Source of the DNA: a virus
Direction: 5' to 3' (one strand)
Length of the DNA stretch: 64,000 nucleotides
Virus genome (UHGV): UHGV-0033546
The notes under the pieces were generated by a model that saw only the letters and a list, made by a program, of their open reading frames with translations, had not been told where the DNA came from and did no database searches. A program made the translations under genes and the position numbers. Of this stretch, positions 44,042 to 64,000 are shown piece after piece. Each line of letters opens with the position of its first letter. Positions within the stretch are counted from its first letter, which is position 1.

Positions 44042-44371
44042 TCAATTAGAAAATAAATTTATCCAAGATTGTTCTTTAATTAAAAATGGCTCAGAATCAT
44101 ATGCCATTAAACTTTGGGTAATTAATCCTTTAAATGGTCCATCAATAAATTCCATTGTAAAATATGGAATTTTATTCATTAACCGTGCATTAGGAGCAGT
44201 GCACAAAACTCTGCATCCTTTGAATACACCTTTCTGTAATTTATATTGCTTGGGATAAAATTCGCTCAAGACGTTGTTATTTGCTAAAATTTCAAAATGA
44301 TTCACCAACTTATTTTTAATAGTTTTTGGCGAAAAATAAAGATATTCAAAAAGCTGCGCATCTGTCATCAT
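44042..44371 (-). CDS. hypothetical protein, about 109 aa
   Basis: ATG at 44371 in ATGA overlap with upstream stop (track start 44422). Confidence 0.4.
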   Translation of the reverse strand: MMTDAQLFEYLYFSPKTIKNKLVNHFEILANNNVLSEFYPKQYKLQKGVFKGCRVLCTAPNARLMNKIPYFTMEFIDGPFKGLITQSLMAYDSEPFLIKEQSWINLFSN

Positions 44372-44907
44372 TGCATTCCAATTACGAAAAACTGTGGACG
44401 AGTAATACCACCAATGCAACATTTACTATTGCAGCAGTAGTGTACAGTGTCCATATGGGCGCTATAAATCTTATCCATATCAGGAGATTTAACAGGCTCA
44501 TCAATTATATACAAAATTCGCGAAAGCGATAAACCTATAAACTTGCTTCCTTTATTACCAATAAAACTACGGACAGAATCGGTAAATAAACGAAAACGTA
44601 TATCGTCATTAGAATAACGCGAAAATTCCTTTTTGATGTTATCTGCAGAAATTTTAGCGTAAGCTGAAGTATTAGAAAGAACAATAACTGTTCCGCCATC
44701 ATACAGCCAATTAGCAGCAAAGTTAGTCACAGCAGTTGATTTACCGGATTGACGTCCACCATCTAGTCGAAGAGTGCAATACTGTTTAAGCAAGTCTTCA
44801 AATGGCAAGATATAATCGTTTTTACAAATTTCTTCTACTCTAGCATCAGAATGGTGTGTAAAAGCATTCATCAGGGATAGATAAGGACCAGTCAAAAATG
44901 TTCTCAT
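44368..44907 (-). CDS. P-loop NTPase-like protein, about 179 aa
   Basis: Walker A GGRQSGKST; ATG at 44907 has the best SD (AGAGAGAA); track start 44955. Confidence 0.45.
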   Translation of the reverse strand: MRTFLTGPYLSLMNAFTHHSDARVEEICKNDYILPFEDLLKQYCTLRLDGGRQSGKSTAVTNFAANWLYDGGTVIVLSNTSAYAKISADNIKKEFSRYSNDDIRFRLFTDSVRSFIGNKGSKFIGLSLSRILYIIDEPVKSPDMDKIYSAHMDTVHYCCNSKCCIGGITRPQFFVIGMQ

Positions 44908-45060
44908 TTTGTTCTCTCTAGATTTGGGCCATTCCATGGCACATGAATTGTCCATTCCTGTATTTACCCATTACCGCGCCCGGGCTCGACCTTATTACAG
45001 GTTGGCGGGAATCCCTCACAGAATCATGAGGTCCAGGTTGTTCCCATGTTATTTACTGTA

Positions 45061-45534
45061 TTATTTAAATGATTTGACGTACTGAACAGAACCTTTGCTA
45101 TTCACGAAAGCGATTTTACCATTTTTGTTATACATGGTAGCAGTACGCTGATAGCCATAAGTTTGCTTACCAGATTGATAACCAACTAATGCAAAATTAT
45201 CTTCGCCCATTTTATTCTGTTTAGCACGAATACGCTCATGACCGTGAGCCATAAGAACCTTAGCATCGCCAGTTGCAATGGATCTACGAGTTTTTTCATC
45301 TTCAACTGTATTAACAAAGTCGTCAAATGAATCAAATTTAGCATGAGATTTATTATACAGTTTTCCATCTACTGCATAATTATATCCCTGTACATCCATC
45401 TCAACTTCTGTACCATCATCCAATACAGCAGTGATTTTTTGACCTTTTTTAAATTTCAAAAGATCAGTAAAAGATTCAGCAATAATTTGAGAATTAATAG
45501 CTGCTTCAGTGATAAATTCTTGATATGTTTTCAT
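45061..45534 (-). CDS. internal-protein-like head protein with capsid-targeting leader, 157 aa
   Basis: N-terminus MKTYQEFITEA matches the T4 IP capsid-targeting sequence (cleavage expected after ...E-A); body unlike T4 IPII/IPIII by length. Confidence 0.6.
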   Translation of the reverse strand: MKTYQEFITEAAINSQIIAESFTDLLKFKKGQKITAVLDDGTEVEMDVQGYNYAVDGKLYNKSHAKFDSFDDFVNTVEDEKTRRSIATGDAKVLMAHGHERIRAKQNKMGEDNFALVGYQSGKQTYGYQRTATMYNKNGKIAFVNSKGSVQYVKSFK

Positions 45535-45543
45535 GTGTTTCCT

Positions 45544-45960
45544 TTAAATGTAAATATTTTTACCGTAATACTTATACCAGTGTGGTTTCATTAAAATTTT
45601 TTCATCGAGTCGTTGTTGACTCAACTTAATAGCTGATTTGCATGGGTTATAATCATTTTTCCATTCTACTGGAATATCGCTGATGTCAGGAACTTCAGTA
45701 TCTTTTATACTGAACCCGCGTTTTAAGCATTCCGTTATAATGTCTGATTGACGCTTTCGCAAAAATTCTAACTTATCGTAAAAGAACGTAACATGACCAG
45801 AACCTAAAATAAACTCGGAAGATATTTTAAAATCTTTAACTCTCTTACCATTTGCCACATGTTTACGAACTATACCAAAAACGCGTGGCAATTCACGGTA
45901 TTCTGCAATTAAATGCTGATCAGCAAGTTCAGATACTAAAGTCAAATTAATACGAGTCAT
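45544..45960 (-). CDS. denV: DenV endonuclease V (pyrimidine-dimer DNA glycosylase), 138 aa
   Basis: 138 aa; [17 protein letters not shown]...[10 protein letters not shown] conserved with T4 DenV, diverged in C-terminal half. Confidence 0.85.
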
Positions 45961-46019: not shown

Positions 46020-46550
<531 letters not shown>

Positions 46551-46991
46551 TTAAAAGAGGTTGTTCATTATTCGGTAAAGTGAAGGACCCATCACATATT
46601 GCCATTGAGTACGAGGAATAAGAGCAAAAGCGTCCATCTCTGGAATCATAACTCCATCTTTATTTTCAAAATAAGACTCGCAATGGCAATTTCTGAACAT
46701 CTCATGCTCTACTGGAATCGTATAATAAAATAACTGCAGGTCTTTATTACTAGAATATTTAAATACACCTAGGTCTTCTAGAAGGTCTGGATTATAATTG
46801 CTAAAACCAGTCTCTTCTAAGCATTCTCTTTTTGCAGCTTCCAGCGCATTCAAATCAGAACTTTCTACACGCCCCTTTGGAATATCCCAACGATGCGCCA
46901 TCATTCCAGGCTTACGAGAACCGGTGACCCGCCCCATAAATAAATCTTTATCTTCTGTCATAAAGATAATACCAGCTGATAGTGTTTTCAT
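46551..46991 (-). CDS. nudE: Nudix hydrolase NudE, 146 aa
   Basis: Nudix box GRVESSDLNALEAAKRECLEETGF. Confidence 0.85.
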   Translation of the reverse strand: MKTLSAGIIFMTEDKDLFMGRVTGSRKPGMMAHRWDIPKGRVESSDLNALEAAKRECLEETGFSNYNPDLLEDLGVFKYSSNKDLQLFYYTIPVEHEMFRNCHCESYFENKDGVMIPEMDAFALIPRTQWQYVMGPSLYRIMNNLF

Positions 46992-50561: not shown

Positions 50562-50868
50562 TAAGCCTTGCGGCAACCTTGTCGGGGTTCCACCTGCTAA
50601 GGCAAGTGTTTGTACGAAACGCCGGGATTCGAACCCGGTTATTAAGTAGTTGACGCTACTCAATATTTTTAAAAGGCCATATCTCGACCATATCCGAACG
50701 TTCCGTCAAAAACGCTACTCGGCTTACGGTAAAGATATTTCCTCGAATCGATAATTCGGTGCGCCGTTTCAGCTGTGATAGTAAAGAACCAGAACACAGT
50801 AAAACTGTGGGAGGAACTATACTCCAGGGAACATCAGTCCGACGACTTACCGGTAGCGACCCGGTTTC
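50562..50868 (-). ncRNA. candidate stable small RNA(s) downstream of the tRNA array (T4 species 1/2-like region), boundaries uncertain
   Basis: No minus-strand ORF; contains a perfect tRNA T-arm-like element (CCGGG-UUCGAAU-CCCGG at 50620-50636) and several GC-rich stems. Confidence 0.35.
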
Positions 50869-51219
50869 TTAATATTCTTTTAAAGTATCAATCTGTTCAC
50901 GACGTTTACGCCATAAATCAATTGCTTCATACGCAGATTCAGCATTTCGAATTAGTCGGCATTTGTGTAAAGACTTATGATTTTGATATTGTGTAGATAA
51001 CGGAATTTTATCTAAAAGGTCTTTACGTTCAAAGTATTCGTAACCATCTAAGCCAAATGAACGATTTTTAAGAAATTGCCAATGACCATATTCGTTTTCG
51101 ACATAAACATAATCCGCGTGTTGATAAAGCAAATTAATTACACGTTCAGAAATAACAGTGTCATTGTGATTAAAATAAAATGTTAAATCATGAACTACTA
51201 AATAAACATTACCTTTCAT
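50869..51219 (-). CDS. hypothetical protein, 116 aa
   Basis: Track ORF with ATG at 51219, directly downstream of tRNA-Arg. Confidence 0.5.
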   Translation of the reverse strand: MKGNVYLVVHDLTFYFNHNDTVISERVINLLYQHADYVYVENEYGHWQFLKNRSFGLDGYEYFERKDLLDKIPLSTQYQNHKSLHKCRLIRNAESAYEAIDLWRKRREQIDTLKEY

Positions 51220-51235
51220 ATTTTCCTCACTTAAT

Positions 51236-51311
51236 TGGTCGAGGCAGTAGGGATCGAACCTACGACCTAGGACTTAGAAGGTCCTTGCTCTTCCTTCTGA
51301 GCTATGCCCCG
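51236..51311 (-). tRNA. tRNA-Arg (anticodon UCU), CCA encoded
   Basis: Manual cloverleaf: acceptor CGGGGCA/TGCCTCG, T-arm GTAGG-TTCGATC-CCTAC, anticodon loop CUUCUAA. Confidence 0.85.
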
Positions 51312-51315
51312 TAAT

Positions 51316-51391
51316 TGGGGTGACCGATGGGAGTCGAACCCATGACTACGAGAATCACAATCTCGAGTTCTACCAACTGAACTACGGCCAC
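51316..51391 (-). tRNA. tRNA-His (anticodon GUG), CCA encoded
   Basis: Manual cloverleaf: acceptor GTGGCCG/CGGTCAC, D-arm GTTC-AGTTGGTA-GAAC, anticodon loop UUGUGAU, T-loop TTCGACT. Confidence 0.8.
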
Positions 51392-51505
51392 ATTAATACC
51401 TACTCCAACAATCAAGATGTCTTCACACGAAATTAAGAGAAGAATGATCAGTTCAACCCTTATAATCGCGTCAAGTAGATATTAATGTGACAGTTGTCAC
51501 AAATT

Positions 51506-51580
51506 TGGCGGACATGCATGGATTCGAACCATGGACCAATTGATTAACAGTCAACTGCTCTACCACTGAGCTACACATCC
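51506..51580 (-). tRNA. tRNA-Asn (anticodon GUU), CCA encoded
   Basis: Manual cloverleaf: acceptor GGATGTG/CATGTCC, anticodon loop CUGUUAA, T-arm CATGG-TTCGAAT-CCATG. Confidence 0.8.
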
Positions 51581-51584
51581 AAAT

Positions 51585-51671
51585 TGGTGGGGAGTGATGG
51601 AGTCGAACCACCCGAGTCGCAATGACAATGGATTTACAGTCCACACCGCTACCTCTACGGGATAACTCCCC
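51585..51671 (-). tRNA. tRNA-Tyr (anticodon GUA), type II with long variable arm, CCA encoded
   Basis: Acceptor GGGGAGT/ACTCCCC, anticodon loop CUGUAAA, 15-nt variable arm, T-loop TTCGACT. Confidence 0.75.
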
Positions 51672-51684
51672 CTAATTCATAATT

Positions 51685-51759
51685 TGGTGGCCCTGGGTGG
51701 AATTGAACCACCATCTGGCGATTATGAGTCGCTTGCTTGAACCTTCCAGCTACAGGGCC
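51685..51759 (-). tRNA. tRNA with anticodon CAU (Met, or Ile if lysidine-modified as in the T4 tRNA-Ile)
   Basis: Acceptor GGCCCTG/CAGGGCC perfect 7 bp, anticodon loop CUCAUAA, T-arm GGTGG-TTCAATT-CCACC. Confidence 0.8.
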
Positions 51760-51760
51760 T

Positions 51761-51836
51761 TGGTGCTGATTGACGGAATCGAACCGCCGACATCCTCATT
51801 ACAAGTGAGGTGCTCTACCTACTGAGCTAAATCAGC
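51761..51836 (-). tRNA. tRNA-Thr (anticodon UGU), CCA encoded
   Basis: Acceptor GCTGATT/AATCAGC, anticodon loop CUUGUAA, T-loop TTCGATT. Confidence 0.85.
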
Positions 51837-51841
51837 AAAAC

Positions 51842-51931
51842 TGGCGGAGGCGATAGGATTTGAACCTATGAGTCGCCGGAGCGACTGCCGGTTTTCAAGA
51901 CCGGTGCATTAAACCACTCTGCCACGCCTCC
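51842..51931 (-). tRNA. tRNA-Ser (anticodon UGA), type II, CCA encoded
   Basis: Acceptor GGAGGCG/CGCCTCC, anticodon loop CUUGAAA, long variable arm. Confidence 0.85.
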
Positions 51932-51933
51932 AG

Positions 51934-52007
51934 TCTCCATACAAGGATTTGAACCTTGGACCTCCTGATCCCAAATCAGGCGCTCTACCAAACTGAGCTA
52001 CACGGAG
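51934..52007 (-). tRNA. tRNA-Pro (anticodon UGG), CCA not encoded
   Basis: Acceptor CTCCGTG/TATGGAG, anticodon loop UUUGGGA; 3' end is 2 nt from the tRNA-Ser 5' end. Confidence 0.85.
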
Positions 52008-52017
52008 TAAATTAAAT

Positions 52018-52091
<74 letters not shown>

Positions 52092-52096
52092 AAATT

Positions 52097-52183
52097 TGGT
52101 GCGAGAAGTGGGACTCGAACCCACAAGGAAATCATTCCGCAGCATTTTAAGTGCTGTGCCTTTACCAATTTGACCATTCTCGC
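52097..52183 (-). tRNA. tRNA-Leu (anticodon UAA), type II, CCA encoded
   Basis: Acceptor GCGAGAA/TTCTCGC, anticodon loop CUUAAAA, long variable arm. Confidence 0.85.
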
Positions 52184-52184
52184 G

Positions 52185-52257
52185 CTGGGAATAAAGGACT
52201 CGAACCTTTGCATCCTGGAATCAAAATCCAGTGCCTTACCAACTTGGCTAATTCCCA
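52185..52257 (-). tRNA. tRNA-Gln (anticodon UUG), CCA not encoded
   Basis: Acceptor TGGGAAT/ATTCCCA, anticodon loop UUUUGAU; 3' end is 1 nt from the tRNA-Leu 5' end. Confidence 0.85.
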
Positions 52258-62217: not shown

Positions 62218-64000
62218 CAGTAAAAGCACCTTCAGTCACTAGTCTCAGAATTTCCAAGTTATCCGCAAATCAGGTGCAAGTACGCTGGGATGACGTTGGT
62301 GCTAATTTCTACTATTTTGTAGAAATCGCTGAGACAAAAACAAACTCGGGGGAAAATCTCCCGAGTAATCAATATAGATGGATTAACTTAGGATATACTG
62401 CAAATAACAGCTTCTTTTTTGATGATGCTGATCCATTGACATCATATGTTATTAGAGTAGCCACGGCTGCGCAAGATTTTGATCAGTCTGATTGGATTTA
62501 TACTGAAGAGTTTGAAACTTTTGCTACAAATGCTTATACATTTCAAAACATGATTGAAATGCAATTAGCTAATAAATTCATTCAGGAAAAATTTACTCTT
62601 AATAATTCTAATTATGTCAATTTCAATAATGACACAATAATGGCTGCGTTGATGAATGAATCATTTCAGTTCAGCCCATCGTATGCTGATGTCTCATCAA
62701 TCAGTAATTTTATTATTGGTGAAAACGAGTATCATGAAATACAAGGTTCTATTCAGCAAGTATGTAAGGATATTAACCGAGTTTATTTGATGGAATCAGA
62801 AGGGGTTCTATATCTTTTTGAGCGCTATCAACCTGTAGTTAAAGTATCTAATGATAAAGGACAAACCTGGAAAGCTGTAAAGCTCTTCAATGACCGTGTA
62901 GGATATCCTTTATCTAAGACAGTATATTACCAATCTGCAAACACAACATACGTTCTAGGATACGATAAAATTTTCTATGGCCGTAAATCGACTGACGTTA
63001 GATGGTCAGCAGATGATGTCAGATTTAGTTCGCAAGATATAACATTTGCTAAATTAGGAGACCAACTTCATTTAGGATTCGATGTTGAAATCTTCGCTAC
63101 TTATGCGACTTTACCAGCGAATGTATATCGTATAGCTGAAGCCATTACTTGTACGGACGATTATATCTATGTTGTTGCCAGAGATAAAGTTAGATATATA
63201 AAAACGAGTAATGCACCTATAGATTCTGACCCGTTATCGCCAACATACTCGGAAAGACTTTTTGAACCTGATACAATGACTATAACTGGAAATCCTAAAG
63301 CAGTATGCTATAAAATGGATTCTATTGGTGATAAAGTTTTTGCTCTTATTATTGGCGAAGTTGAAACATTGAATGCTAATCCTAGAACATCAAAAATAAT
63401 TGATTCCGCTGATAAAGGAATATATGTTTTAAATCATGACGAAAAAACATGGAAAAGAGTTTTTGGTAATACTGAAGAAGAAAGAAGACGTATTCAACCT
63501 GGATATGCGAATATGTCAACTGACGGTAAATTAGTTTCTCTGTCTTCGAGTAATTTTAAATTTTTAAGTGATAATGTTGTTAATGACCCTGAAACTGCAG
63601 CAAAATATCAGTTAATTGGTGCTGTCAAATATGAATTTCCTCGTGAATGGTTAGCTGATAAGCATTATCATATGATGGCGTTTATAGCGGATGAAAAATC
63701 TGATTGGGAGACTTTTACTCCTCAACCAATGAAATACTACGCAGAACCATTCTTTAACTGGTCTAAAAAATCTAACACACGCTGTTGGATAAACAACTCT
63801 GATAGAGCTGTAGTAGTTTATGCTGATTTAAAATACACTAAAGTTATAGAAAATATTCCGGAAACATCACCAGATAGATTAGTCCATGAATACTGGGATG
63901 ATGGTGATTGTACTATAGTAATGCCAAATGTTAAATTCACTGGATTTAAAAAATATGCATCTGGGATGCTTTTCTATAAAGCCTCCGGTGAAATAATTTC
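62214..64000 (+). CDS. 7: gp7 baseplate wedge protein, N-terminal 595 aa (truncated by window end)
   Basis: ATG at 62214; open frame to window end; MTVKAPSVTSLRISKLSANQVQVRWDD matches T4 gp7. Confidence 0.9.
   Translation, partial: MTVKAPSVTSLRISKLSANQVQVRWDDVGANFYYFVEIAETKTNSGENLPSNQYRWINLGYTANNSFFFDDADPLTSYVIRVATAAQDFDQSDWIYTEEFETFATNAYTFQNMIEMQLANKFIQEKFTLNNSNYVNFNNDTIMAALMNESFQFSPSYADVSSISNFIIGENEYHEIQGSIQQVCKDINRVYLMESEGVLYLFERYQPVVKVSNDKGQTWKAVKLFNDRVGYPLSKTVYYQSANTTYVLGYDKIFYGRKSTDVRWSADDVRFSSQDITFAKLGDQLHLGFDVEIFATYATLPANVYRIAEAITCTDDYIYVVARDKVRYIKTSNAPIDSDPLSPTYSERLFEPDTMTITGNPKAVCYKMDSIGDKVFALIIGEVETLNANPRTSKIIDSADKGIYVLNHDEKTWKRVFGNTEEERRRIQPGYANMSTDGKLVSLSSSNFKFLSDNVVNDPETAAKYQLIGAVKYEFPREWLADKHYHMMAFIADEKSDWETFTPQPMKYYAEPFFNWSKKSNTRCWINNSDRAVVVYADLKYTKVIENIPETSPDRLVHEYWDDGDCTIVMPNVKFTGFKKYASGMLFYKASGEII

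Follow-up and report, generated by a model that had tools for sequence, protein, structure and literature searches.

A conserved pseudoknotted RNA domain ahead of vs.8 in T4-like phages appears to belong to an undescribed phage RNA family

A Predicted Pseudoknotted RNA Domain Upstream of vs.8

Within a 64,000-nucleotide (nt) stretch of the virus genome UHGV-0033546 (the window, by which we mean this whole stretch), which belongs to a T4-like phage (Tequatrovirus), a gap of 153 nt at 44908-45060 lies between the stop codon of a gene for an Ip4-like internal virion protein (IP) and the consensus start of vs.8, a gene for a P-loop protein. Comparison with related phages shows this gap to be the putative DNA copy of a conserved, pseudoknotted RNA domain, one member of a family that looks restricted to phages. 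In the predicted fold, which covariation supports, the loop of helix P1 pairs with a downstream segment (forming PK1), and P2, P3, and a weak P4 meet in a three-way junction between the two PK1 strands. The element is probably an unrecognized functional phage RNA that matches no described family. An earlier note on this DNA, made from the letters alone, had correctly delimited the gap as an island rich in G+C and in palindromes, and had named a structured RNA among its possible explanations. That option is strongly supported by conservation and covariation among relatives, and the outcome that the note had set against itself, an untranslated tail with no conserved structure in relatives, is not what the relatives contain.

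The gap has a G+C content of 47.1%, compared with 34.8% for the window, and 1.2% of 153-nt windows are equally rich; a windowed G+C profile thus bears out the description. All four of the palindromes quoted in the earlier note are present (GCCATTCCATGGC at 44928-44940, GCCCGGGC at 44978-44985, GGGAATCCC at 45007-45015, and CCTCACAGAATCATGAGG at 45014-45031). As structure, two of them stand, GCCATTCCATGGC being P6 and CCTCACAGAATCATGAGG being P1b, both of which are conserved helices. The other two do not: GCCCGGGC is particular to the window phage (T4 has GCGCTTGGGC and others have CACTTGGGC), and GGGAATCCC merely bridges the ends of two separate helices. The palindromes therefore captured two peripheral hairpins and missed the three-way-junction core (44968-45005) and the pseudoknot (45034-45037 with 44957-44960), and the note also missed that most of this stretch is annotated as coding in T4. 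The predicted parts of the element are as follows, all on the minus strand, with helices given as minus-strand RNA read 5' to 3':

44928-45045, minus: whole structured RNA, from the P1 5' strand to the P6 3' strand; kept from end to end in about 545 phage records (coverage of at least 80%)
44962-45011, minus: family-wide core, matched by the covariance model R1 (P2/P3/P4 three-way junction and flanks; 63.9 bits, E = 5e-18)
45041-45045, minus: P1 5' strand, GGGAA, pairing with 45007-45011
45007-45011, minus: P1 3' strand, UUCCC; the helix is also predicted by RNAfold for the window sequence
45034-45037, minus: PK1 5' strand, CCUG, within the P1 loop, pairing with 44957-44960
44957-44960, minus: PK1 3' strand, CAGG
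45014-45031, minus: P1b hairpin, CCUCAU-GAUUCU-GUGAGG, 45026-45031 pairing with 45014-45019
45003-45005, minus: P2 5' strand, CCA, closing the three-way junction and pairing with 44968-44970
44968-44970, minus: P2 3' strand, UGG
44989-45002, minus: P3 hairpin, ACCU-GUAAUA-AGGU, 99.6-100% paired
44985-44988, minus: J3/4 junction, CGAG; C invariant, A and G in at least 90%
44971-44974, minus: J4/2 junction, GUAA; U, A, and A invariant, G in at least 90% (42 distinct sequences)
44975-44984, minus: possible P4, CCC-GGGC-GCG, weak; holds most of GCCCGGGC
44945-44957, minus: P5, a variable hairpin, GAAU-GGACA-AUUC, with A(U/A)GGA at or near the loop; helix predicted by RNAfold
44928-44940, minus: P6 hairpin, GCCA-UGGAA-UGGC, specific to T4-like phages, 91.9% paired

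Covariation and Conservation of the Fold

Alignments were made with MAFFT without structural input, and slid partners and 500 shuffles served as controls. Among 31 distinct sequences of the long type, the full model (P1, P1', P1b, P1c, PK1, and P2-P6) is 92.5% paired, compared with at most 45.5% for slid partners, and its covariation score is 0.159 (at most 0.022 in the controls; 0 of 500 shuffles), with eight pairs altered on both sides. PK1, which joins the loop of P1 to the segment just 3' of P2, surfaced in an unbiased scan of all column pairs of this alignment with no prior model. Taken alone, it is 95.7% paired (at most 37.6% when slid) with a covariation score of 0.664 (at most 0.039; 0 of 500 shuffles), and it occurs in this alignment in the versions CCG:CGG, CAC:GUG, and CGC:GCG. 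P1 also covaries, as AAAGG:CCUUU, AAAGC:GCUUU, and AAAGA:UCUUU, the pair 5:52 being GC in 22 sequences, CG in six, and AU in one. With RNAalifold, mixed T4-like sequences returned invariant local hairpins only, and P1 and PK1 were missed, because the Tequatrovirus and long types align poorly. The same P1/PK1 topology, spelled with different letters, is found by eye in every other lineage:

Tequatrovirus: P1 GGGAA:UUCCC, PK1 CCUG:CAGG
Karamvirus: P1 AAAGC:GCUU, PK1 CCUG:CAGG
rV5-like: P1 GGGG:CCCC, PK1 GCCAG:CUGGU
rV5 variant B: P1 GGAAC:GUUCC, PK1 GAGG:CCUC
46-kb phages: P1 GAAUG:CAUUC, PK1 CGGA:UCCG
360-kb contig and L088: P1 GUGUAU:AUACAC, PK1 CGGU:GCCG
L123 and L135: P1 UGAGG:CCUCA or UAGAUA:UAUCUA, PK1 CCCA:UGGG or CCAA:UUGG
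Other lineages: P1 GAGUG:CACUC (tRNA-cluster lineage), PK1 CCAG:UUGG

Within the three-way junction, the innermost pair of P2 is a standard one in all 62 of the 62 distinct sequences (A:U in 32, U:A in 16, U.G in eight, and C:G in six), and the CC:GG of this helix is replaced by GG:CC in Karamvirus-type copies. P3 has the family form (A/G)CCU-GURAWA-AGG(U/C), in which CCUGU and AAGG are invariant across 42 distinct sequences (alignment A4); rare variants occur in the wider set (e.g., CCUGC in L123 copy 1), and a double change from A:U to G:C is present in L039, L042, and L045 copy 2. Its loop is mostly GU(A/G)A(U/A)A, with C at position 5 in L048 and L109. For P4, pairing holds in 58.6-63.5% of cells; most copies have C.C as the middle pair, 7-9 have G:C, and some lineages have a clean hairpin of three base pairs (bp) at this place (CGC-AAU-GCG, GCC-CGC-GGC, or GUC-CGC-GAC).

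P1b has a U-A pair in T4 and U.G in the window phage, is CUCA:UGAG in long-type phages with a compensatory paired deletion to CUA:UAG in L012, L021, and L109, and its position is occupied by CACAU-GACG-AUGUG in rV5-like phages and by CUACG-GACG-CGUAG in rV5 variant B. In P5, positions A112, G114, G115, and A116 (AnGGA) are invariant in the long-type alignment, while the stem around them varies in length and carries a 30-nt insertion in L012 and L021. P6 is GCCG..CGGC-like in S16 and GGCA..UGCC in PM2.

Distribution Beyond T4-Like Phages and Association With tRNA Genes

The core was modeled as R1 and run with filters off on the whole window, where the only match is the one at 44962-45011; the rest of the window has no further copy of the core. 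Pattern scans of IMG/VR and of metagenomes, followed by an R1 search of the fetched loci, returned 97 instances representing 62 distinct sequences. Apart from T4-like phages, their sources are two types of rV5-like phage, contigs of 46-47 kb, one contig each of 70 kb and 360 kb, and several short contigs. The rV5-like Vequintaviruses match over a 44-nt stretch at 91-95% identity, and identity within the inner 32 nt of the core is 78-97% with rV5-like and tRNA-cluster phages included, although the proteins flanking the rV5-like and T4-like loci have no homology to each other. In the rV5 genome the order is promoter P75, ORF75, element, promoter P74, ORF74, and six tRNAs, and since the sigma-70 promoter P74 stands between the element and ORF74, the element is not a leader of the next open reading frame (ORF) in rV5.

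Of the non-T4-like loci, 20 include tRNA genes, and in every one of these the element and the tRNAs share a strand; the 20 loci represent perhaps eight independent lineages. Its position relative to the tRNAs differs: it comes ~20-40 nt after a tRNA in L088 and L116 and 42 nt after tRNA-Glu in the 360-kb contig, lies between tRNAs in L070, L124, L127, and L128, and stands ahead of them in L117, L120, L122, L129, and L135; in other non-T4-like loci it is 170-560 nt from a tRNA.

Outside phages, there is no blastn match in 5,426 Escherichia coli genomes, and the exact core is absent from the GTDB genomes (185,579 species, one genome each). A scan of these species genomes with a degenerate pattern gave 53 loci, five of which pass R1 at E of at most 0.01; all five score at most 26 bits and have P2 unpaired, and they were judged to be chance matches. 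The foreign-DNA remnant proposed in the earlier note is not supported, given that neither search yielded a convincing match and that the element is under strong purifying selection.

Several further features were observed around the non-T4-like copies. In the 46-kb lineage (L117, L120, L122, L126, and L129), an additional long-range stem, GUUGUGAC...GUCACAAC, encloses the whole element, with a compensatory variant, GUUGUGAA...UUCACAAC, in L070, and the motifs GAAAGCAAAA (5') and GUUAGUAG (3') are conserved in the flanks; based on this stem and these motifs, the RNA is probably longer in this lineage. Upstream of the element in rV5-like phages is a repeat, CCCYUAGAGGGCUUGAWAGUGC (hairpin CCCU-UAG-AGGG plus a tail), at ~1585-1625 of L002; in L066, L072, and L086 the motif stands on both sides of the element, variant B having a second copy downstream. 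Within the phage tRNA clusters beside the element, ARAGORN reports odd tRNA-like genes in L115 (1465-1563) and L060 (2501-2599), both with anticodon 'atcc', and in L088 (3587-3669, 'ctgg'); these genes, with four-base anticodons or extra length, could be intron-containing or frameshift-suppressor-like tRNAs. Matches to the Rfam permuted tmRNA below the gathering score of 47 are present in L126 (3004-3091, minus strand, 33.7 bits) and L122 (1737-1844, plus strand, 26.3 bits), a few hundred nt from the element, and are probably tRNA-like fragments.

The T4-Like Locus and the Link to vs.8

By blastn, the gap sequence is found in 994 phage records, 545 of them at a coverage of at least 80%, and the matches include Tequatrovirus, Mosigvirus, Dhakavirus, Gelderlandvirus, Jiaodavirus, Karamvirus, Moonvirus, and Mosugukvirus. 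The distribution of vs.8 is close to that of the element (1010 and 994 phage records, respectively). Across the 29 T4-like loci that were read, the element adjoins vs.8 on its upstream side, except in four with an inserted gene; the gene preceding the element varies, being denV in T4, Ip4 in the window phage, and other IPs elsewhere. The stop codon of denV directly adjoins P1 in T4, and P1 is overlapped by UAAUAAAGG in long-type phages. Conservation of the inner core (78-97%) far exceeds that of the adjacent coding sequence: the Vs.8 protein of Tequatrovirus shares 35-45% identity with its counterparts in Jiaoda-, Karam-, and Moonvirus. In the window, the minus-strand gene order is nudE, e, denV, the Ip4-like gene, the gap, and vs.8, with P6 ending 9 nt before the vs.8 Shine-Dalgarno (SD) sequence:

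51236-52257, minus: tRNA cluster of 11 genes (ARAGORN), 6 kb upstream of the gap
46551-46991, minus: nudE
46020-46514, minus: lysozyme gene e
45544-45960, minus: denV
45061-45534, minus: Ip4-like internal virion protein (PF24183/DUF7412, phrog_3155)
45061-45063, minus: stop codon of the Ip4-like gene; P1 begins 15 nt further
44914-44918, minus: vs.8 SD sequence, GAGAG
44905-44907, minus: vs.8 start codon
44368-44907, minus: vs.8, P-loop protein (phrog_1488)

The four exceptions are Jiaodavirus-like loci (L015, L031, L038, and L043), in which a gene for a 100-amino-acid (aa) IP-like protein (MKTYKEFITEAKA...) lies between the element and vs.8 (9896-10439 in L015; 345-900 in L031, kv_tblp2), with the core upstream of the inserted gene. 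This gene is flanked by two copies of P6, the second of which, together with part of P5, precedes vs.8. From this arrangement, P5 and P6 behave as the vs.8 leader proper, and the core, together with P1 and PK1, can be detached from vs.8. The insertion resembles that of a cassette through recombination within P5/P6.

The core has also been duplicated and reduced. Tandem, diverged copies arose twice independently, in Karamvirus/Erwinia phage COW86c and in L123 (a 44.6-kb contig), and are located at L029 663-824, L030 667-828, L045 5092-5252, L047 9019-9180, and L123 827-962. Copy 1 has the loop GUGAAA and P2 swapped to GG:CC, and in copy 2 the P1 domain is shortened and P4 is clean (GCC-CGC-GGC). 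In Mosigvirus EP32B (L004 1497-1546) a minimal T4-like version, from which the P1 domain and P5 are deleted, still scores 52 bits; here a C-to-A change breaks one pair of P3 (AAUGUC).

Coding Potential and Public Annotation

The statement that the gap has no ORF is accurate for conserved ORFs, though small ones are present in the window: 33 aa from GTG at 44918-45019 on the minus strand and 58 aa from TTG at 44909-45085 on the plus strand, neither of which is conserved in relatives, as well as a 16-codon extension of vs.8. In T4T, vs.8 is annotated at 64242-64892 (216 aa; L001 962-1612), which covers most of the element, and NC_000866, in which the element lies at ~64,781-64,918 on the minus strand, is annotated likewise. 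Among 14 distinct sequences, this N-terminal extension has 37 codons in T4T, has 16 codons in another frame in six or seven of Tequatrovirus type (including the window), is an unrelated GTG extension of 12 codons in one (L059), and is absent in five or six; in EP32B, a short ORF in the third frame overlaps the core. The start used here, MRTFL..., is the family consensus, and positions 2-177 of the PHROG 1488 profile match residues 3-179. By these comparisons T4's N-terminal Vs.8 extension is, as a predicted reading frame, not a conserved one, and since its frame is not kept even within Tequatrovirus, the gene model of vs.8 is probably wrong in many deposited genomes. Labels given to vs.8 and the gap are also inconsistent ('terminator', 'RegB endoribonuclease domain protein', 'terminase large subunit', and 'endonuclease') in OL960580.1 (SA21RB, where the core at 62377-62415 is the 'terminator'), MH051915, KF925357, OR125554, and others, which looks like annotation noise.

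Interpretation and Alternative Explanations

Transcription of the element would occur as part of a polycistronic RNA running from Ip4 to vs.8, because it has no promoter or terminator of its own; as the earlier note had stated for promoters, there are zero sigma-70-like sites, or intrinsic terminators, in or beside the gap. Once transcribed, the element would act as a self-standing module, not as a regulator made for vs.8. Its invariant junction may present a fixed three-dimensional surface to a conserved partner, probably host-encoded or tRNA-related, and the compact knot may delimit or protect the RNA, so that the module outlasts the processing of early or tRNA transcripts. To this, T4-like phages would have added the hairpins P5 and P6, with GGA in or near their loops, as an immediate leader for vs.8. 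The case for autonomy from vs.8 draws on the same core and topology in unrelated gene contexts, on the non-homologous flanking proteins, and on the separation by the IP-like gene. Taken jointly, an autonomous folded RNA module with a conserved partner or nuclease resistance, and P5/P6 as the vs.8 leader, is a statement to which we would give about an even chance. Tentatively, and with a lower expectation of being right, the T4 copy may be one representative of an undescribed RNA class, a three-way junction enclosed by an H-type pseudoknot, that spreads horizontally among unrelated virulent enterobacterial phages, as a rule along with their tRNA genes, and has a biochemical activity of its own. 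Such activity could be that of a new self-cleaving or processing ribozyme, or of a decoy (sponge) for a conserved host factor with tRNAs as its target, such as an anticodon nuclease or an enzyme that modifies or processes tRNAs; the U-G-U that is invariant around the P3 loop would be a lead for the latter option.

Several observations weigh against an autonomous, knotted RNA. Single-sequence folding energy, which the earlier note had suggested as a check, is ordinary on both strands and no better than that of shuffles (z = +0.56 and +0.76), and so the case for structure rests on comparative evidence and not on palindromes. The comparative evidence has its own limits: the sequences are phylogenetically related, and shuffle controls therefore overstate significance; the P1 and PK1 matches across lineages come from visual reading, and searching each sequence automatically, with shuffled controls, gave no statistical power, as helices this short often arise by chance. 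P4 appears poorly supported in the alignments and is treated as unproven. In T4-like phages a distance of 6 kb separates the tRNA cluster from the element, which abuts vs.8, as would fit a role in cis. Classical 32P surveys of T4 stable RNAs reportedly detected nothing beyond tRNAs and species 1 and 2, a point against an abundant free RNA in this phage. The strand is likewise unsettled by wobble counts, with 24 G.U and 50 A.C cells in alignment A5 and 19 and 11, respectively, in A6. A single invariant A.C in P1c accounts for 29 of the 50 A.C cells in A5, and these cells, like the A.C of P6 in six sequences, favor the plus strand (on which they would be G.U), whereas U.G in P2 in 8-14 sequences favors the minus strand. 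We infer the minus strand, which carries the flanking genes, from the gene sense of the element in all T4-like phages, from its co-orientation with tRNAs, and from the lack of a plus-strand promoter.

The nearest competitor to an autonomous module is a cis-regulatory leader of vs.8, in which the junction would be an aptamer or operator for a metabolite or protein, signaling through P5/P6 to the ribosome-binding site as a riboswitch or translational operator does. The position of the element directly before vs.8 in Tevenvirinae, whatever gene precedes it, is consistent with this, as are the near-equal distributions (994 and 1010 records), the 9 nt from P6 to the SD sequence, and the retention of P6 ahead of vs.8 despite the gene insertion; in addition, aptamers are commonly built as an H-type pseudoknot that embeds a helix (as in preQ1-II), and the GGA in or near the loops of P5 and P6 resembles CsrA sites. 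We nevertheless regard it as unlikely, as a whole gene can separate the core from vs.8 (L015, L031, L038, and L043), a sigma-70 promoter intervenes before the next ORF in rV5-like phages, and in other lineages tRNAs are neighbors in place of ORFs and the downstream genes are unrelated; nor was any conserved anti-SD pairing, terminator, or riboswitch model match found. A new self-cleaving ribozyme, or a module recognized by an endonuclease, that would cut polycistronic early or tRNA transcripts is less probable still. It would account for the strand topology, which is that of HDV-like ribozymes, for the co-orientation with tRNAs at 20 of 20 loci, for the spacing of ~20-40 nt after a tRNA in L088 and L116, and for a near-invariant junction that resembles catalytic cores. 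It would not account for the varying position of the element upstream of, between, or downstream of tRNAs, the lack of conservation of C at the J4/2 equivalent, a P1 of 4-6 bp that does not start with G.U, conserved bases that fall in the P4-equivalent domain, a placement more than 5 nt from any tRNA 3' end, or the lack of an Rfam ribozyme hit at E of at most 10.

That the gap is a block of DNA-level homology at the edge of the hypervariable IP region, guiding cassette swaps, is suggested by its place at the exact boundary where the variable IP/denV block gives way to the conserved vs genes and by the two P6 copies bounding the IP-like insertion in L015 and L031; we consider it very improbable, since compensatory changes preserve pairing, which homology-driven recombination does not need, the same fold occurs co-oriented with tRNAs in unrelated phages without IP cassettes, and the window has no core repeat. 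A protein-coding role, either as the N-terminal extension of Vs.8 (216 aa in T4) or as a 33-aa peptide, has the T4T annotation across most of the element and the GTG ORF of the window to recommend it, and is hardly credible when the extension frame is unconserved, the PHROG 1488 profile begins at MRTFL, and substitutions follow pairing and not codons. Finally, a G+C-rich leftover of foreign or host DNA that has no function and whose palindromes arose by chance would agree with folding z-scores that are not significant, but this is refuted by the comparative data, in which ~1000 phage genomes keep the element, covariation is evident, and no host match exists; we assign it a negligible probability.

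The gap is thus larger in meaning than a palindrome-rich spacer, and it appears to hold an undescribed phage RNA family. No virulent phage has been studied more thoroughly than T4, yet in T4-type genomes the stretch is unannotated or mislabeled, as coding in T4 and as a terminator in SA21RB, while a core of ~50 nt is held near letter-for-letter constant across phage families that have no flanking genes in common. Ribozymes, riboswitches, and protein-sponging RNAs were discovered in the wake of such signatures: a conserved core, a covarying pseudoknot, and consistent linkage to tRNAs. If the element does act on tRNA metabolism or on host defenses that target tRNAs, an RNA player would be added to the arms race between phage and host; at the least, the gene model of vs.8 would be corrected in hundreds of genomes and a new covariance model would be available for phage annotation.

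Comparison With Known RNAs and Elements

Searches against described RNAs gave no family for the element. With Rfam 15, also proposed in the earlier note, no family was found on the window region, where the hits are noise (snoRNA and MS2 operator, E>1), and seven other loci gave only tRNAs and the sub-threshold tmRNA-like matches. No Rfam tRNA, tmRNA, or Yrl match falls on the element at eight loci, no ribozyme matches at E of at most 10 on the window region or at most 1 on the seven other loci, and no riboswitch model matches. The 11 tRNAs that ARAGORN locates in the window are all outside the gap. The literature searched contains no description of the element, which may be among the 10,006 unnamed viral candidates of the bulk catalog in PMC10690425; a paper on RegB and S1 (PMC1702504) concerns the denV SD sequence and not this element.

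An intrinsic terminator does not fit, as there are 0 terminator-like sites in 44300-45700 and none of the helices is followed by a U-run. The promoter-early stem-loop (PeSL) cassettes of T4-type phages, which Arbiol and colleagues are said to have described in 2010, reportedly couple an early sigma-70 promoter to a stem-loop at cassette borders; no promoter-like site exists in or beside the gap on the minus strand. GCGGUAAU is identical to the 530 loop of 16S rRNA, and the P3 loop contains a tmRNA-like stop pair (UAAUAA), both of which we judge to be resemblances at chance level. A CsrA-binding leader or sponge is a lead: CsrA sites have an ANGGA motif in hairpin loops, and GGA occurs in or near the loops of P5 (the invariant AnGGA) and P6 (GGAA in nearly all copies); the window element has five GGA, compared with ~2 expected by a rough estimate, and the invariant core has none.

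T4 species 1 and 2 (rnaC and rnaD) are non-tRNA RNAs of ~100-140 nt, situated in the tRNA cluster and co-transcribed with tRNAs, a context that is also that of the element's family in non-T4-like phages; unlike these RNAs, the window element is 6 kb from the cluster. At 50700-51235 of the window (minus strand), 3' of tRNA-Arg, there is an ORF of ~115 aa and then a noncoding stretch (~50700-50870), which by its position may hold stable RNAs of the rnaD/rnaC type. This stretch has no similarity to R1, and R1, run over the whole window, found no homology to the RNAs 3' of tRNA-Arg, a comparison in which no rnaC or rnaD reference was used directly.

GOLLD and ROOL often adjoin tRNA genes, as the element does, and are likewise structured RNAs of phages and prophages. 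They are 500-800-nt, multimeric, cage-forming RNAs (bioRxiv 10.1101/2024.12.08.627333), whereas the element is ~60-130 nt long and differs from them in fold and hosts.

The closest resemblance in topology is to the HDV-like ribozymes, whose strands are interleaved in the order P1, P2, P3, P1, P4, P2. In the element, the order is P1 (5'), PK1 (5'), hairpin P1b, P1 (3'), the branched P2 domain, and PK1 (3'), which is the same topology, and P1 and PK1 both covary. Theta ribozymes, which are HDV-like and are found in gut phages, trim tRNA trailers with a cleavage site at most 5 nt from the tRNA 3' end, and HDV-like ribozymes have a catalytic cytosine at the first position of J4/2 (PMC10879173). 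Like theta ribozymes, the element is borne by phages beside tRNA genes on the same strand. However, its equivalent J4/2 position is G in Tequatrovirus, rV5-A, and L117, U in the long and Karam types, and C in rV5-B; its P1, of 4-6 bp, does not have the G.U start of HDV-like ribozymes; their 3-bp P3/L3/P1.1 arrangement is absent; and its invariant bases lie in the P4-equivalent three-way junction, a domain that is dispensable in HDV-like ribozymes. The element is also not within 5 nt of tRNA 3' ends, the nearest spacers being ~20-25 nt (L088 and L116), and its hosts are of the Enterobacteria type, whereas those of theta ribozymes are Bacteroidota or Bacillota. An HDV-like or theta ribozyme was rejected on these grounds (no catalytic C, misplaced conserved bases, and tRNA 3' ends too far away).

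Two leader pseudoknots provide further comparison. The preQ1-II riboswitch is an H-type pseudoknot aptamer with an embedded helix, and the element is similar in that a hairpin loop pairs with a downstream strand, an additional helical domain occupies the connecting loop, and, in T4-like phages, the whole is located in a 5' leader near an SD sequence. Unlike in the preQ1-II type, the embedded domain is a conserved three-way junction, the 3' strand of the pseudoknot contains no SD sequence, and no regulated ORF lies downstream in most lineages. The pseudoknot in the leader of the T4 gene 32 mRNA, through which gp32 autoregulation occurs (PMC10690425), is like the element an intercistronic leader of T4-type phages that is absent from Rfam; that pseudoknot is bound to its own gene and protein, whereas the element moves among unrelated gene contexts and phage families.

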